Assembly: GCA_934293575.1 (NCBI GenBank)
Contig: CAKQYU010000005.1
Span: 46,147 to 110,146, forward strand
Length of the DNA: 64,000 nucleotides
Source: an uncultured Lachnospiraceae bacterium
GTDB taxonomy: Bacteria > Bacillota > Clostridia > Lachnospirales > Lachnospiraceae
Direction of reading: 5' to 3'
Shown: piece by piece, positions 8,407 to 60,737 of the stretch
Position numbering within the stretch: position 1 is the first letter of the stretch
Layout of the letters: every line of letters starts with the position of its first letter
The notes under the pieces: generated by a model
Told to the model about the DNA's origin: nothing
The model's input: only the letters and a program-made list of their open reading frames with translations
The model's database searches: none
Made by a program: the position numbers and the translations under genes

Positions 8407-10956
8407 ATGGACGGAAGAGTAATATGGAGAATTCTGGTTTTACTGATAATATTTGTTGCCACGATTTTTCTTGTAAATAAATTGGATAATGCAGGTGTGG
8501 AGGATGTTTCCATCGAGATGGAGCAGGCAACCCTTCCGATTGTGTATGTCAGATATAATGATGATTTTATAAATACACTGCACGGATATACGGGTAAGGT
8601 AGATACAACCTATTTTCGTGATACGATTACACCTATGGATTATGGAAGATCCATTGAGTTATGGGTGGATCAGACAAAGAAGAATTATTCCTCTTATGAA
8701 TATGAATTGCGTAGTCAGTATCAGGGAGATTTAATTGAGAATGGTGCAGTAACGGATATTAATCATGCAGATGGTTATGATAAAATGTCCATTTCTTTTC
8801 GTACGAAATTAGAGGAATTGCAGGAGTATGTATTAGTTATAAAGGCAATGGATGATAATGAGTCGGCGGTTCGTTATTATACAAGAGTTGTTGTGGAAAA
8901 TGATTTTCATGCACCGGCATTACTTGACTATGTAGAGGGATTTAATGATGCATTATTTGATAAGGATAAGGCGGAATCGTATATTACCAAAAGTATTGAA
9001 CCAAATGAAGACGGTAATAACGAATATCTGTCAAAAGTAAATATTCATTCCAGTTTTGATACGATTACATTTGCTGATTTGAATCCTACAAGAATAACAA
9101 AACCAATTCCGAGTATTAAGGAAATTGATGACAGTTATGCAATCATACAGCTAAAATATATGATTTCGGCAGAAGAAAATAAAGTAGTAGAAAATTATTT
9201 TGTGACGGAAGAGTACAGAGTGCGCTATGCGGGTGGGGATAATGTATATCTTTTGGATTATAACCGTTCACAGGAAGCAATGTTTACCATAGACAATATT
9301 GATGCAGCTTCCAATGTTTTCAAATTGGGAGTTTTAGAGGATGATAATTTCCAGTATAAAACAAGCTCAGACTCGAAGAAGGTAGCATTTACACAGGCAA
9401 GACAGTTGTGGTATTACGATTATGATGCCGGAACGATAACGAATGTTTATGGCTTTTATCAGAACGATAATTATACCGATGTTCGTGTGACTTACGATGA
9501 AAATAATATAAAAATTTTGCGGATGAACGATAATGGTAATATTACATTTGCTGTCTATGGTTATATGAACCGTGGTAAAAATGAAGGAAAAGTAGGAATC
9601 GGTGTTTATGAATTTAATGCCGAAAAAGATAAAGTACAGGAAGTTTTGTTTGTTGAAAACAATAAACCATATAATATTTTAAAAGAAGATATGGAGACGT
9701 TACTTTATCTGAATGATGATGGAGAGTTTTACTATTTTGATAATGATTGTGTTATAAAAATTAATACAAAAACCAGACAATCAGAGATTTTTATTGAAGA
9801 TGTATTAAATGAAAATCTGGCAGTTTCTCAGGATAATCATTTGATTGGTTATCCGGATGCATTGTTGACGGAAAATACAACCAAGATAACGGTTTATGAT
9901 TTGGATTCGAAGGAAAGCAGAGAAATTGATGCGAAGAGTGGTGAACGATTATCGGCAATCGGATTTGTAGAGAATGATTTGGTACTTGGAAGAATCCGGG
10001 AGGGCGATATTGTTGAGGCACTTGATAAAACCGTTACCTGTCCGGCATCAACGATAGATATTATTGATAAAAATAATAATGTTGTAAAAACATACGGAAC
10101 AACCGGTGTATATGTTACGGATGCGGTAGCAAAGGACAACGTCATTTATTTGAACAGGGTAAGAAAAATAAATGGTGGATTCGAAGAAACGACACAGGAT
10201 TTTATCACATATAAGGAAGAGGAAAACAAGGGATCGTTATCTGTCGTATATAAGAATACGGATAAAGGATATAATCAGTTATATATGACATTCCCTTCTA
10301 CTATTTTTGTATCAGCGAATCCAAAACTGATGATTACAAAGTCGGTTGTCAATGATGAAGATACAACTGTTAAGATTACATTTGATCACACAAATAAAAA
10401 ATATTATGCATATGGACAGGGAAAATATATGACAGATTATTTGAATCTGAATGCTGCTGTTCGTGCTGCATATGAAAATGCCGGTGTTGTATTGGATGAA
10501 AATGGTGTAATTGTATGGAGAAAGATTGCAGTTAAGGATTACCATACAGTTGCAGATAAGATTAAGATTCATACGGTGGAATCAATTGATGATACGCTGG
10601 GTGCATGTATTTACATGATGGGAGTTTATGAAGGTAAAACACCTGACTATGCAGTTATGCAGCAAGAATTAAAAGATGCATCAAAGTCGATAGAAGATAT
10701 TATTCTGGAATATACGGGTCGTCAGGGAACGGATATTACGGGATGTGACTTTGAGAATGGATTGTATTATCTTTGTAAAGATGCTCCGGTTATCACAAGA
10801 TTTGCAGATGGAACCTATGTATTGGTTACCAGTTATAATGGAGAAAAGGTACGTTATATTAATCCGTTAGAACCGACCGATATTGTTGAATCGCGTGCAG
10901 AATTTGAAGAGAAGGTAAAGGATAGTGGTAATGTCTTTATCAGTTATGTAAGATAA
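8407..10956 (+). CDS. Large membrane-anchored or secreted hypothetical protein (849 aa)
   Basis: RBS aggag; N-terminal signal anchor ILVLLIIFVATIFLV; long Asn/Asp/Tyr-rich extracytoplasmic region; C-terminal segment containing LGACIYMMG. Confidence 0.5.
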   Translation: MDGRVIWRILVLLIIFVATIFLVNKLDNAGVEDVSIEMEQATLPIVYVRYNDDFINTLHGYTGKVDTTYFRDTITPMDYGRSIELWVDQTKKNYSSYEYELRSQYQGDLIENGAVTDINHADGYDKMSISFRTKLEELQEYVLVIKAMDDNESAVRYYTRVVVENDFHAPALLDYVEGFNDALFDKDKAESYITKSIEPNEDGNNEYLSKVNIHSSFDTITFADLNPTRITKPIPSIKEIDDSYAIIQLKYMISAEENKVVENYFVTEEYRVRYAGGDNVYLLDYNRSQEAMFTIDNIDAASNVFKLGVLEDDNFQYKTSSDSKKVAFTQARQLWYYDYDAGTITNVYGFYQNDNYTDVRVTYDENNIKILRMNDNGNITFAVYGYMNRGKNEGKVGIGVYEFNAEKDKVQEVLFVENNKPYNILKEDMETLLYLNDDGEFYYFDNDCVIKINTKTRQSEIFIEDVLNENLAVSQDNHLIGYPDALLTENTTKITVYDLDSKESREIDAKSGERLSAIGFVENDLVLGRIREGDIVEALDKTVTCPASTIDIIDKNNNVVKTYGTTGVYVTDAVAKDNVIYLNRVRKINGGFEETTQDFITYKEEENKGSLSVVYKNTDKGYNQLYMTFPSTIFVSANPKLMITKSVVNDEDTTVKITFDHTNKKYYAYGQGKYMTDYLNLNAAVRAAYENAGVVLDENGVIVWRKIAVKDYHTVADKIKIHTVESIDDTLGACIYMMGVYEGKTPDYAVMQQELKDASKSIEDIILEYTGRQGTDITGCDFENGLYYLCKDAPVITRFADGTYVLVTSYNGEKVRYINPLEPTDIVESRAEFEEKVKDSGNVFISYVR

Positions 10957-10967
10957 ATATAAGTAAA

Positions 10968-10999
10968 ATAAAAAAGGTGGCAACCGCCACCTTTTTTAT
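10968..10999. terminator. Bidirectional rho-independent terminator between convergent genes
   Basis: aaaaa-GGTGGC-aacc-GCCACC-tttttt: a perfect 6-bp GC-rich stem flanked by an A-run and a T-run. Confidence 0.6.
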
Positions 11000-11169
11000 T
11001 ACTCTTCAGAGATTACTCCTGTAGGGCATGTTCCTGCACATGAACCACAAGAAATGCATGTATCTGCATCGATTTCAAACTTGCCGTCGCCTTCAGAAAT
11101 AGCGCCAACAGGACAAGAACCTGCGCATGCTCCACATGATACACATCCATCATTAATAACAAATGCCAT
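10999..11169 (-). CDS. 2x[4Fe-4S] ferredoxin (56 aa), absent from the ORF track
   Basis: Hand translation of the minus strand gives MAFVINDGCVSCGACAGSCPVGAISEGDGKFEIDADTCISCGSCAGTCPTGVISEE, with two C-x2-C-x2-C-x3-CP motifs. RBS aggagga lies 6 nt upstream. Confidence 0.7.
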   Translation of the reverse strand: MAFVINDGCVSCGACAGSCPVGAISEGDGKFEIDADTCISCGSCAGTCPTGVISEE

Positions 11170-11279
11170 AGTAGATTCCTCCTTATAAAATTGTATATGT
11201 TATTCGTATATAGGTAAAATACCTTATTACAAATATTTTAAAACAAGTACTATTAGATAGCAAGTATTTTTTTGGATAC

Positions 11280-12038
11280 TTACTGTATGTTATCATCTTG
11301 TCTTCTGCGTTTCATAGCAGCTAAAATTACTTCTCTTGCATGGATAGCGGATTCTTTTGGTAAATCCTTCAGACCCTTTAATGGATAATCGATACCAAGT
11401 TTTTCATACTTCACAACACCCATTCCGTGATAAGGAAGACAATCCAAAGCCGTTATATTTTTGAATTGACCGATAAAATATCCTAATTGGTCAAGGTATT
11501 TGTCGTTTAAGGTAATTCCTTCCACAATGACATGACGAATCCAGGTATTAATATTTTTTTCGCTTAAATATTTTAAGAAATCTAAAATATTGTCATTTGG
11601 CTGCTGGCAAAGTTTCTGGTGTTCAACCGGATCGATATGTTTAATATCTAACATAACCAAATCGGTTACTTTCATCAGACGGTCAAATTTTTTGAGTAAC
11701 TCCGCATTCTCTCTGTGGAAAATAACACCGGAAGTATCTAAACAGGTGTGAATGCCTTTTTCTTTACAAGCTTCAAATAACTCAGTTAAAAAATCAATCT
11801 GAACGAGAGGTTCTCCTCCGGTAGCTGTAAGACCGCCATTTGCATAAAATGATTTCATGGATTCATATTGATCCAACAAATCTTTTACCGTGTGTTTTTC
11901 TGCACCTTCCATGCTCCACGTATCCGGGTTGTGGCAATATTTACAACGCATAGGACATCCCTTAAAAAATACGACAAATCGCATTCCCGGACCATCTACT
12001 GTTCCACATGTTTCAATTGAATGAATATATCCTGTCAT
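11280..12038 (-). CDS. pflA: Pyruvate formate-lyase activating enzyme (glycyl-radical enzyme activase, radical SAM)
   Basis: N-terminus GYIHSIETCGTVDGPGMRFVVFFKGCPMRCKYCHNPDTW (C-x3-C-x2-C). Confidence 0.9.
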   Translation of the reverse strand: MTGYIHSIETCGTVDGPGMRFVVFFKGCPMRCKYCHNPDTWSMEGAEKHTVKDLLDQYESMKSFYANGGLTATGGEPLVQIDFLTELFEACKEKGIHTCLDTSGVIFHRENAELLKKFDRLMKVTDLVMLDIKHIDPVEHQKLCQQPNDNILDFLKYLSEKNINTWIRHVIVEGITLNDKYLDQLGYFIGQFKNITALDCLPYHGMGVVKYEKLGIDYPLKGLKDLPKESAIHAREVILAAMKRRRQDDNIQ

Positions 12039-12164
12039 TTATTAATCCCTTTCTTTCCTAAATATATAATTTGTTTGTTGTTAAATATTATGTATAAAAC
12101 AATTGTGATTCTATTCAATAACACAAATAAATATTTTGTGTAAAAACAGTTATTTCTATTATTG

Positions 12165-12202
12165 ATTGAAAAGAAAGGCAAGGGCGAATAAATGCCCCTG
12201 CC
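12165..12202 (-). terminator. Terminator after the glycyl-radical ORF on the minus strand
   Basis: Minus-strand hairpin GGCAGGGGC-atttattc-GCCCTTGCC followed by tttcttttc. Confidence 0.45.
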
Positions 12203-12241
12203 TATATAGTTTGATTTGTAGTTATTCAAAAACTTCTTAGA

Positions 12242-12481
12242 TTACATAGACTCATGGAATGTTCTTGAAATAACGTCTGCCTGCTGCTCTGGTGTTAACT
12301 TAACGAAGTTAACAGCATATCCAGATACACGGATTGTTAACTGTGGATAGTTCTCCGGATGTTTCTGAGCATCAATTAATGTTTCACGGTTTAATACGTT
12401 AACATTAAGATGATATCCACCTTTTTCTACATAACCATCTAACATATTTACTAAGTTATCTACCTGCTGTGTACTAGCCAT
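12242..12481 (-). CDS. Stand-alone glycyl-radical domain protein (GrcA/YfiD-like; equivalent to the C-terminal ~70 aa of PFL)
   Basis: [66 protein letters not shown] contains the RVSGY glycyl-radical motif. Own RBS aaggagga 7 nt upstream. Confidence 0.8.
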
Positions 12482-12513
12482 TTTATTATCCTCCTTATCA
12501 AAATTATACCGGA

Positions 12514-12729
12514 TTAATCTTCGTGTAACTCTTCGTCCATGCCCTCCATTAAAGTAGGAACACTACATGCAAGGTCACCCTTTGCACAATCAAGACATCC
12601 AAGAGTTTCTTCTGTTTTTTCTCCGGCTGCAACGGTATCGTCCACGGACACATTAATGTGTCCATGTCCGTTTGTAACCATATCATCTAACATTGCAACA
12701 ATGTCATCTACTTGATCTTTGTCTGTCAT
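12514..12729 (-). CDS. Cys-containing acidic small protein; diverged partial paralog of the glycyl-radical domain N-terminus, lacking the radical glycine
   Basis: [29 protein letters not shown] parallels [29 protein letters not shown] of the downstream ORF. It then diverges into [14 protein letters not shown]...EELHED. RBS ggagg 8 nt upstream. Confidence 0.5.
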
Positions 12730-12769
12730 ACTAAAACCTCCAAGCTAAACATTGTTTGAACAATCATTA

Positions 12770-14812
12770 TTATTTGTTAAGATCGATTTCGATATCTCCT
12801 GCAAATACCTGATCTTCTTTACCAAGAGCACCTGGAACGATAGAGAATGTATTTGAAATACCATCCTGAGCGTCTCTGAAAGGAATCTTAGCTACAGAAG
12901 AAAGTGATGCTACTGCACCATGAGTATCTCTCTTATGAAGTGGGTTAGCACCTGGAGCAAATGGTGCACCATGCTTACGTCCACAAGGAGTATCACCTGT
13001 ATTCTTACCATATGTTACGTTTGAAGTAATTGTAAGGATTGACTGTGTAGGGATACCATTACGATATACATGCTGCTGACGAAGCTTATCCATAAATGTT
13101 GTAACGATGCTTGTAGCAATTTCATCTACACGGTCATCATTGTTACCATATTTAGGGAAGTCACCCTCTGTCTCGTAGCTTGTTACGATACCCTGCTCGT
13201 TACGAATAACTTTAACCTTAGCATACTTGATAGCTGATAATGAGTCAGCAACGATTGAAAGACCAGCAACACCTGTTGCGAAGTATCTCTTTACGTCTCT
13301 GTCATGTAATGCCATCTGAATTCTTTCATAAGCATACTTATCATGCATATAGTGGATAATGTTAAGTGCGCTAACATAAACTTTAGCTAACCAATCCATC
13401 ATATCGTTGAACTTATCCATTACATCATCATAGTCAAGGTAGTCACCTTCAACCGGACGATACTTAGGTCCAACCTGAACACCTGTACACTCATCAACAC
13501 CACCGTTGATAGCGTAAAGTAAACATTTAGCTAAGTTAGCACGAGCTCCGAAGAACTGCATCTCTTTACCAATAACCATTGAAGATACACAACAAGCAAT
13601 ACCATAATCATCACCGTGAAGAGGTCTCATTAAGTCATCGTTCTCATACTGGATAGAAGAAGACTTGATAGACATCTTTGCACAGAACTGCTTCCATCCA
13701 AGTGGAAGTTTCTTTGCCCAAAGAACAGTCATGTTTGGCTCTGGAGCTGCACCTAAGTTATTTAATGTATTAACGAAACGGAATGACATCTTTGTTACTA
13801 ATGTACGTCCATCAACACCCATACCACCAAGAGACTCTGTTACCCAAACTGGGTCACCAGCGAAGATCTGGTTGTACTCTGGTGTACGTGCAAACTTAAC
13901 GCAACGTAACTTCATAACGAAATGATCGATGAACTCCTGAATCTGCTCTTCTGTAAACTTGCCGGCAGCTAAATCTCTTTCTGCATATACATCAAAGAAT
14001 GTAGATGTACGACCAAGTGACATAGCAGCACCGTTCTGCTCCTTAACTGCTCCAAGGTATCCGAAGTATGTCCACTGGATAGCTTCCTGAACGTTAGTAG
14101 CTGGCTTAGAAATATCAAATCCATAGAATGAAGCCATCTTTGTTAATTCTTTAAGAGCCTTAATCTGCTCTGCGATTTCTTCCTTACCACGGATAACATC
14201 ATCTGTGTAAACCTTACCGAAAGATTCCTTCTGAGCTAATTTATCTTCAATTAATCTATCTGTACCATAAAGAGCAACTCTTCTGTAGTCACCAATGATA
14301 CGTCCACGTCCATAAGCATCAGGAAGACCTGTTACGATATGATTTGTACGGCATTTTCTGATTTCTGAATCATATACATCGAATACACCTTCGTTATGTG
14401 TCTTTCTATGTTTTGAGAAGAAATCAACAACTTCAGGATCTACTGTATATCCGTTATCTTCACAAGCTTTCATAGCCATACGAAGACCACCGTATACATT
14501 CATACCTCTCTTGAAAGGCTTGTCTGTCTGGAAACCAACGATAGTTTCTTTGTCCTTATCAAGATATCCTGCACCGTGTGAAGTTAAAGTAGAAACAACC
14601 TTAGTATCCATATCAAGAACACCGCCAGCTTCTCTTTCCTTCTTTGTTAAATCCATAACTTCAGCCCACAAATCTTTTGTGTTCTGAGTAGGTCCTGCTA
14701 AGAAACTATCATCACCTTCATATGGAGTATAGTTCTTCTGAATAAAGTCACGTACGTCGATAAATTTCTCCCAGTTACCGCCGTTGAAACCATTCCATGC
14801 TTCTGATTTCAT
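12770..14812 (-). CDS. pflB: Pyruvate formate-lyase catalytic subunit, naturally truncated before the glycyl-radical domain (680 aa)
   Basis: Collinear with E. coli PflB from the N-terminus (VRDFIQKNYTPYEGD...GLPDAYGRGRIIGDYRRVALYG) through the active-site region. It ends at ...GDIEIDLNK, about 70 residues short. RBS ggagga. Confidence 0.9.
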   Translation of the reverse strand: MKSEAWNGFNGGNWEKFIDVRDFIQKNYTPYEGDDSFLAGPTQNTKDLWAEVMDLTKKEREAGGVLDMDTKVVSTLTSHGAGYLDKDKETIVGFQTDKPFKRGMNVYGGLRMAMKACEDNGYTVDPEVVDFFSKHRKTHNEGVFDVYDSEIRKCRTNHIVTGLPDAYGRGRIIGDYRRVALYGTDRLIEDKLAQKESFGKVYTDDVIRGKEEIAEQIKALKELTKMASFYGFDISKPATNVQEAIQWTYFGYLGAVKEQNGAAMSLGRTSTFFDVYAERDLAAGKFTEEQIQEFIDHFVMKLRCVKFARTPEYNQIFAGDPVWVTESLGGMGVDGRTLVTKMSFRFVNTLNNLGAAPEPNMTVLWAKKLPLGWKQFCAKMSIKSSSIQYENDDLMRPLHGDDYGIACCVSSMVIGKEMQFFGARANLAKCLLYAINGGVDECTGVQVGPKYRPVEGDYLDYDDVMDKFNDMMDWLAKVYVSALNIIHYMHDKYAYERIQMALHDRDVKRYFATGVAGLSIVADSLSAIKYAKVKVIRNEQGIVTSYETEGDFPKYGNNDDRVDEIATSIVTTFMDKLRQQHVYRNGIPTQSILTITSNVTYGKNTGDTPCGRKHGAPFAPGANPLHKRDTHGAVASLSSVAKIPFRDAQDGISNTFSIVPGALGKEDQVFAGDIEIDLNK

Positions 14813-15159
14813 TATAAATTTCCTCCTTTTAAAATAAAATATTTGTGAAATTCATCTTATGTGTGTAAGTATCCACCCAATACAGAATGCTTAAGGAAAA
14901 TATTTACAGATTCCTGATGAAATTCTCATGGTTTCATTATAGTTTTTTATTGTATACAAGTCAACGGAAATTCCCTGCAATTCTTGTATTTTTTCTGGTA
15001 CAAAAATGAGAAAAAGAAATGTAAAATTTATAAAAAATTAAAGAAAAATCAGTATTTTGAGAAAGAAAAAATTGTATACACAATATGTAGGGTTTTGTTA
15101 AAATCGTATCTATGATACAATGAAGAATTGTGAAAAGAATGATTGATTAGGGTAAAGAA

Positions 15160-60627: not shown

Positions 60628-60737
60628 CTCTCTTATTCAGAGTGGTGGAGTCAGAAGGGACTATGAAGCCACGGCAACCCCCATTTGGGAAGGTGCCGGC
60701 CTGAGGCGGGACATAAATGTACCGATCAATAAGAGGA
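60628..60737 (+). promoter_or_regulatory. SAM-I (S-box) riboswitch
   Basis: P1 ctcttatt...aataagag, with conserved core elements (agagnggnggag, gaagccacggcaacc, gaaggtgcc) upstream of metK. Confidence 0.8.

Follow-up and report, generated by a model that had tools for sequence, protein, structure and literature searches.

A small radical-domain relative as a putative third component of a naturally split PFL in Lachnospiraceae

Between a pflB gene that ends before its radical domain and grcA3, the gene for an autonomous glycyl-radical subunit, the 64,000-nucleotide stretch of Lachnospiraceae DNA analysed here (the window) encodes an acidic protein of 71 residues. Judging from sequence comparison, this small gene is best explained as a real third component of a naturally three-piece pyruvate formate-lyase (PFL) that consists of core, 71-aa protein and GrcA3. 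The small protein appears to be a glycyl radical enzyme accessory that stems from the spare-part or radical-domain lineage itself but dispenses with the radical, and it is from this anatomy that we infer a function. No glycyl radical enzyme is more widespread than PFL, which is a main pyruvate route in gut and rumen Lachnospiraceae. Full-text searches turned up no account of a PFL that is split by nature, nor of the small protein, and the division into core and GrcA3 is reflected solely in an NCBI naming model. The arrangement bears on how a separately made radical domain finds, enters and leaves its core, and on why the rescue system of E. coli needs a duplicate beta10 strand (PMC8683613). 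A modular, repairable PFL with a loader could also aid the engineering of oxygen-tolerant glycyl radical enzymes.

The 71-aa gene and its place in the pfl operon

The operon runs on the minus strand in the order pflB, 71-aa ORF, grcA3, pflA and ferredoxin gene, with the following features:

14936..14964, minus strand: promoter-like site 5' of pflB, TTGACT-17-TATAAT, 11 of 12 positions, a consensus match only
12770..14812, minus strand: truncated pflB core, 680 aa (PflB-680), matching positions 1-665 of 744 of the formate C-acetyltransferase model TIGR01255 with 1085 bits
12770..12805, minus strand: acidic amphipathic PflB tail FAGDIEIDLNK plus stop codon, absent from full-length PFL
12737..12741, minus strand: GGAGG ribosome-binding site of the 71-aa gene, 7 nt 5' of the ATG
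12514..12729, minus strand: gene of the 71-aa protein, ATG to TAA, the finding reported here
12242..12481, minus strand: GrcA3, 79 aa, autonomous glycyl-radical subunit with an RVSGYAV loop (NF038360)
12176..12203, minus strand: terminator-like hairpin 3' of grcA3, 10 pairs, 7 of them G-C, followed by a T run
11280..12038, minus strand: pflA, PFL-activating radical SAM enzyme (TIGR02493, 281 bits)
10999..11169, minus strand: 2x[4Fe-4S] ferredoxin, 56 aa (NF058577, 88.7 bits)

The first-pass annotation had placed an ORF with its own GGAGG site between a truncated pflB and a GrcA-like ORF, and our analysis confirmed its coordinates, ribosome-binding site and neighbours. The gap that separates it from pflB measures 40 nt in the window. 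As the promoter-like site lies 5' of pflB and a terminator-like hairpin follows grcA3, it is probable from these signals that pflB, the small gene and grcA3 form one transcription unit. Note that the only strong terminator-like hairpins follow grcA3 and the ferredoxin gene, and that the gaps between pflB, the small gene and grcA3 contain no terminator-like site. In most of 72 loci the orthologue likewise has a Shine-Dalgarno sequence in front of it, mostly GGAGG or GAGG, though some of these sites are weaker. The start of the small gene overlaps the 3' end of pflB in two very divergent lineages (L102:600-607 and L103:301-323), an overlap that suggests translational coupling. The 56-aa ferredoxin is the likely reductant for PflA.

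This gene order is strictly kept. Truncated pflB, small gene and grcA3 follow each other on one strand in all 80 genome loci that were fetched, and again in 10 of 10 further metagenome look-ups, down to about 35% identity. The triad is intact in P0125 and P0130 (about 52% identity), in P0376, P0300 and P0361 (42-48% identity), beside the GrcA3 entry P0521, and in the two-Cys or otherwise divergent forms P0177, P0237 and P0133. The genes for PflA and the ferredoxin, however, are often not adjacent to it, being kilobases away or missing in some of the 80 loci.

Core, radical subunit and small protein

PflB-680 keeps the catalytic cysteine pair in the motif IACCVS but lacks the glycine loop. By comparison with E. 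coli PFL, the core ends at the equivalent of residue 679 and is followed by a tail of 11 residues, giving the C-terminus ...ALGKEDQV-FAGDIEIDLNK; the truncated PflB measures 678-688 aa in 72 related loci. The tail motif, [IVL]F[AST]GD[IL][DE]x[DE][LI], was seen in L007-L105 and is retained even in the most distant loci. MAFFT aligns the tail under the E. coli beta10 strand GGQHLNVNV, although this is weak evidence; by its sequence the tail might be a degenerate built-in copy of beta10, a self-plug, or else a docking site for small proteins.

The radical subunit of the window scores 161 bits against the NF038360 cut-off of 158 and has no N-terminal extension, and among the closest 120 relatives listed for the 79-aa gene are ones that carry the NCBI name GrcA3. 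Orphan genes of this type also occur. In L098 (3189-3590), L099 and L100, a GrcA3-like gene 88% identical to that of the window lies downstream of a hybrid histidine kinase, with neither pflB nor a small gene adjoining, and lacks the usual stop, which extends the product to 133 aa. Such a gene could be a genuine second 'spare' or a copy in decay. Two GrcA3 database entries, P0418 and P0425, show internal tandem duplications of 19-31 residues; each comes from a single short contig, and the duplications are probably assembly artefacts.

The small protein itself is divided into three parts:

12643..12720, minus strand: N-terminal docking module, residues 4-29, homologous to the helix and beta10 strand of GrcA3 and PFL
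12601..12642, minus strand: variable linker, residues 30-43, with no conserved sequence across the family
12535..12600, minus strand: C-terminal module, residues 44-65, with a Cys-bounded loop, a VPTL motif and an acidic end

The relationship to GrcA3 is evidenced by three comparisons. BLASTP aligns the two proteins with 32% identity over 62 aa (E 2e-7), the NF038360 model recognizes residues 4-29 only, with 18.6 bits and an E value of 0.0015 that leave the cut-off of 158 out of reach, and hhalign of the small family against the GrcA3 family gives a probability of 97% (E 8e-11) that is confined to residues 1-33. Beyond residue 33, a forced global alignment to GrcA3 yields no credible homology, the glycine loop included. 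The 71-aa protein does not match the Pfam Gly_radical model (PF01228, cut-off 22.2 bits), and the glycine-radical loop RVxG[FWY] is absent from all family members read. The BLASTP and hhalign values bear out the view in the first-pass annotation that the first 30 or so residues parallel the start of GrcA3, and all three comparisons agree with its description of a duplicated docking segment minus the radical loop. Also as described there, the protein contains three cysteines (C45, C48 and C55), histidines in a GHGH motif and an acidic tail; its pI is 4.05, with 19 D+E against 3 K+R. An ungapped alignment of the tails had raised the alternative of a full-length paralogue with a cysteine in place of the radical glycine, which is ruled out by the restriction of the hhalign homology to residues 1-33. 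The likeness of DLACSVPTL to the PflB catalytic loop GIACCVSSM amounts to three identities in nine positions and was judged not significant.

The docking segment follows the consensus [IV]-D-[DN]-[IL]-V-x-M-L-D ... G-x-G-H-[ILVM]-N-[VI]-x-[VI] and corresponds to the helix preceding beta10 and to beta10 itself (numbering of PMC8683613). Its counterpart in E. coli PflB is LAGLMDGY...GGQHLNVNV, and the residues that it shares with GrcA3 are also conserved in E. coli PflB 684-709, L..LMDGY...GG.HLNVNV. The linker then spans 12-66 residues across the family, with a median of 18; in GrcA3, 19 residues separate the strand from the start of the glycine loop and 23 separate it from the radical glycine. 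The C-terminal module reads C-x(4-6)-C-x-[VI]-P-T-L-x-x-G-[ILM]-[DE] and closes with an acidic end. In an alignment of 85 sequences with a mean column identity of only 27%, two positions, C55 and P58, never vary, and C48, A54, D15, G23 and H24 reach at least 90% conservation.

An AlphaFold2 model of the monomer shows a helix at residues 4-19 and extended chain elsewhere. Block-mean pLDDT values are 82-89 over residues 1-20 and 50-67 in the Cys region, and the overall mean is 62 with a shallow and 73 with a deep alignment. A Foldseek search of the PDB with this monomer returned no match, and a sequence profile search of the PDB gave nothing significant for the small protein. The model is consistent with a small acidic protein that may fold upon binding its partner.

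A possible placeholder for the radical subunit, and its alternatives

The frame for any functional reading is set by work on E. coli, where beta10 is the last strand of a ten-stranded barrel and the YfiD strand, which duplicates it, must swap with it and replaces it when YfiD rescues oxygen-cleaved PFL (PMC8683613). [quoted passage not shown] The split PFL of Lachnospiraceae resembles a natural 'tPFL plus spare part', with the difference from E. coli that core and GrcA3 are both devoid of such auxiliary elements. Like GrcA/YfiD (TIGR04365), GrcA2 (NF008341) and GrcA3 (NF038360), the small protein is short and has its gene next to pfl genes. In about its first 30 residues, helix and beta10-type strand, it is homologous to GrcA3, and by this similarity the same slot of the core is probably used; unlike GrcA3, it has no RVSGYAV loop and no C-terminal helix and carries the Cys/VPTL/acidic module instead. 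Since both loop and C-terminal helix are missing, the small protein cannot carry the radical.

Codon usage gives an indirect measure of abundance. With the pflB of each locus as the reference, the median codon adaptation index was as follows:

Small gene: 0.47
pflA: 0.46
Other long ORFs in the loci (background): 0.41
Ferredoxin gene: 0.66
grcA3: 0.72

The contrast holds for individual amino acids: the share of AAC among Asn codons is 0.32 in both the small gene and pflA, but 0.62 in grcA3 and 0.66 in pflB. The length of the gene is not the cause of its low index, because GrcA3 is equally short. As far as this indirect measure goes, it suggests that the small protein is made in much lower amounts than core and radical subunit, and a recycled accessory factor fits the low value better than a 1:1 structural subunit. 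The strong Shine-Dalgarno site of the small gene, however, runs counter to low abundance.

The reading that we favour, tentatively and with rather more doubt than conviction, is that of a placeholder or loader which serves the beta10/helix slot in the PflB core and is recycled. Module 1, residues 4-29 or so, copies the helix and beta10 strand that insert into the core in GrcA3 and, in an ordinary PFL, at the C-terminus; module 2, new in its Cys-bounded loop, VPTL motif and acidic end, takes the place of the glycine-radical loop, and a flexible tether joins the two. As long as the core is without intact GrcA3, module 1 would dock in the empty slot, complete the barrel and cover the catalytic cysteine pair in IACCVS, and module 2 could grip the core a second time, though less firmly, within the glycine-loop cavity or close to it. 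Intact GrcA3, with its full set of contacts, would then displace the small protein, which would be recycled. On this view the protein, present in small amounts, would keep the slot or load it, and might serve in exchange after oxygen damage; it would be neither a radical carrier nor a stoichiometric subunit. Like residues 696-733 of E. coli PFL, the small protein would be a second copy of beta10 that coexists and swaps with the strand of the spare part. The E. coli element, however, is carried by the damaged core and arises only when oxygen has cleaved it, whereas the small protein is separately encoded, apparently co-transcribed constitutively and equipped with a module of its own; its function may be equivalent. 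Several points weigh against this placeholder model. It leaves the near-invariant Cys pair and the VPTL motif unexplained; the beta10 slot might be filled by the conserved tail of PflB, which would lessen the need for a placeholder; and the gene order of core, small protein and GrcA3 is also compatible with an early-binding subunit that remains in place. The roles put forward in the first-pass annotation, a competitive regulator of docking or a chaperone, are plausible candidates.

A more active variant, possible but doubtful in our view, is a strand-swap exchange or quality-control factor that would hold the beta10 slot, eject oxygen-cleaved fragments of GrcA3 and hand the slot to an intact copy, possibly under redox gating by the cysteines. 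If this were true, it would be the first case in which the radical domain of a glycyl radical enzyme has given rise to a regulator, and the 'recognition element' that has been postulated for the YfiD rescue in E. coli would have a natural counterpart acting in trans.

The cysteines invite a further reading, which we consider unlikely: a redox-gated safety plug or radical quencher, in which the Cys pair would form a disulfide or deliver a thiol hydrogen into the radical site and so displace or quench GrcA3 once oxygen appears, shielding the catalytic cysteine pair. Two cysteines 4-6 residues apart are indeed near-universal, with C55 invariant, they lie at the chain distance of the glycine loop, the docking module would carry them to the active site, and the hosts, strictly anaerobic bacteria of gut and rumen, are transiently exposed to oxygen. 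Against this, there is no thioredoxin-like or other known redox motif, the Cys spacing varies from 1 to 9 residues across the family, and no regulatory signal separates expression of the small gene from that of pflB and grcA3. Quenching would also gain less in a split enzyme, which loses just a cheap 79-aa subunit to oxygen.

The first-pass annotation had gone further and seen in the C-x2-C-x6-C pattern and the histidines a possible metal- or redox-sensing motif whose conservation in other genomes should be checked. The pattern is present in the window and its first cysteine is found in the two largest subfamilies, but among 123 diversity-balanced representatives with the terminal Cys motif (50% identity) 29 have CxxC-x6-C, while 81 have just one further cysteine. 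Family-wide, C48 and C55 alone are near-universal. H24 is the sole conserved histidine and is equally conserved in GrcA3 and in the E. coli PflB strand HLNVNV, a conservation that follows from shared ancestry with beta10. The 71-aa protein matches none of the Fe-S, Zn, rubredoxin or HiPIP families, nor is a confident fold predicted for it. With only two cysteines throughout the family, a dedicated metal site is doubtful.

These data also bear on whether the small protein could be a permanent metal- or Fe-S-binding PFL subunit that tunes the mobility of the radical domain in the manner of HPAD gamma or BSS beta/gamma. In a 2026 review of glycyl radical enzymes, HPAD, BSS and MASS are the only ones with listed small subunits, and YfiD is the only spare part (PMC13450708). 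HPAD gamma, BSS beta/gamma and MASS beta/gamma/delta are, like the small protein, 60-90 aa long, Cys-containing and encoded next to the catalytic subunit, and they are believed to affect how accessible or how mobile the radical domain is (PMC13450708). These precedents in three other enzymes, one of them with a 3-Cys-1-His cluster (PMC13450708), together with the C-x2-C-x6-C and nearby His kept in the two largest subfamilies, are what speaks for such a subunit. The known ones, however, are HiPIP- or rubredoxin-like proteins whose iron sites are of the 4-Cys or 3-Cys-1-His type; they have no relationship to the radical domain and serve X-succinate synthases and a decarboxylase rather than PFL. 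The small protein, by contrast, derives from the radical domain and has two universal cysteines without the 4-Cys or 3-Cys-1-His ligand set. Given also the two-Cys majority, the inherited histidine, the lack of an Fe-S, rubredoxin or HiPIP match and of a confident predicted fold, and a codon adaptation far below that of PflB and GrcA3, we regard a metal-binding subunit as quite improbable.

We are just as sceptical of a factor directed at the activase, a PflA-binding adaptor or decoy that would time radical transfer to free or docked GrcA3. Its codon adaptation does equal that of PflA, but the small gene is linked to pflB and grcA3, while pflA often lies several kb off or is not in the locus at all. 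In known PFL structures the homologous module contacts the core and not the activase (PMC8683613), and there is no glycine-loop-like RVxG[FWY] motif for PflA to bind. The connection with the adjacent ferredoxin and PflA that had been suggested for the window likewise finds no support in gene linkage, as pflA and fdx are often non-adjacent and the triad never breaks.

Distribution, family definition and surroundings

Relatives of the small protein are numerous and are named 'hypothetical protein' throughout the databases; neither Pfam nor NCBIfam holds a family for it. A word-indexed search returned 151 homologues, 70-77 aa in length. When 1.84 billion representatives were searched exhaustively with an HMMER profile, 212 clusters at 50% identity reached E<=1e-3, 66 of these E<=1e-10, and nearly all were of 60-90 aa once a few spurious repetitive proteins had been removed; a profile word search with a broader profile found at least 820 proteins. 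The long repetitive matches P0123, P0124, P0172, P0223 and P0241 were discarded as spurious, coiled-coil or low-complexity. P0199, P0221, P0232 and P0248, singletons with the C-terminal motif behind unrelated N-termini, were set aside; they are probably chimeric contigs or miscalled starts. In a scan of one genome per species the small gene was present in 149 species. Isolates that carry it include Eubacterium ruminantium ATCC 17233 and FB3002 and the Lachnospiraceae bacteria YSB2008 and C6A11; Clostridium sp. CAG:590, a metagenome-derived species-level assembly, is also among the 149. All 149 species matches, as well as all named database relatives, belong to Lachnospiraceae or to poorly classified MAGs.

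Pairwise dN/dS is 0.14 for the small gene, compared with 0.09 for PflB and 0.10 for GrcA3. In a comparison of parallel covariation across 72 genomes, the docking modules of small protein and GrcA3 showed little variation and much shared ancestry. That the gene might be a non-functional duplication remnant or a miscalled ORF, as its shortness, the lack of a known domain and the bare annotation 'hypothetical protein' could suggest, is refuted by the dN/dS value, by motif columns that are invariant across sequences otherwise 30-40% identical, and by more than 90 loci in which length, position and Shine-Dalgarno site are retained. The first-pass annotation had named absent conservation, together with absent expression, as the sign of a decaying remnant; relatives are instead widespread, under a dN/dS of 0.14 and with invariant motif columns.

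On the strength of these sequence features we propose a new family, the GRD-docking decoy of split PFL. Its members would be acidic proteins of 60-90 aa with the motif [IV][DE]D[IL]V.MLD...G.GH.N[VI], a variable linker and C-x(4-6)-C-x-[VI]-P-T-L..G.[DE], encoded on the same strand between a pflB truncated before the radical domain and grcA3. The 71-aa protein fits the description and its gene fits the address, and more than 800 'hypothetical proteins' could gain a family.

The surroundings of the operon differ between loci. In L089-L097 and L104 (e.g. L089:2505-2696 and L104:1380-1586), loci of other lineages that share the split-PFL triad, a divergent gene for a DUF1858 protein (PF08984) of 63-100 aa lies just 5' of pflB and adjoins a mecA-like gene, and a MerR regulator gene and dnaB follow the operon; at the corresponding site 5' of pflB the window has no DUF1858 gene. 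GC skew is strongly positive across the window except at 12-14 kb, and the pfl operon (10999-14812), presumably highly expressed, runs against the prevailing strand bias and is probably oriented head-on to replication. The 64 kb contain no tRNA gene, and the sole Rfam match in the window is a SAM (S-box) riboswitch at 60630-60735 on the plus strand (73 bits, E 3e-15). Convergent with the ferredoxin gene, an 849-aa ORF for which no Pfam family is on record lies at 8407-10956 on the plus strand; it occupies the same position in all six of the metagenome contigs that carry the exact 71-aa protein.
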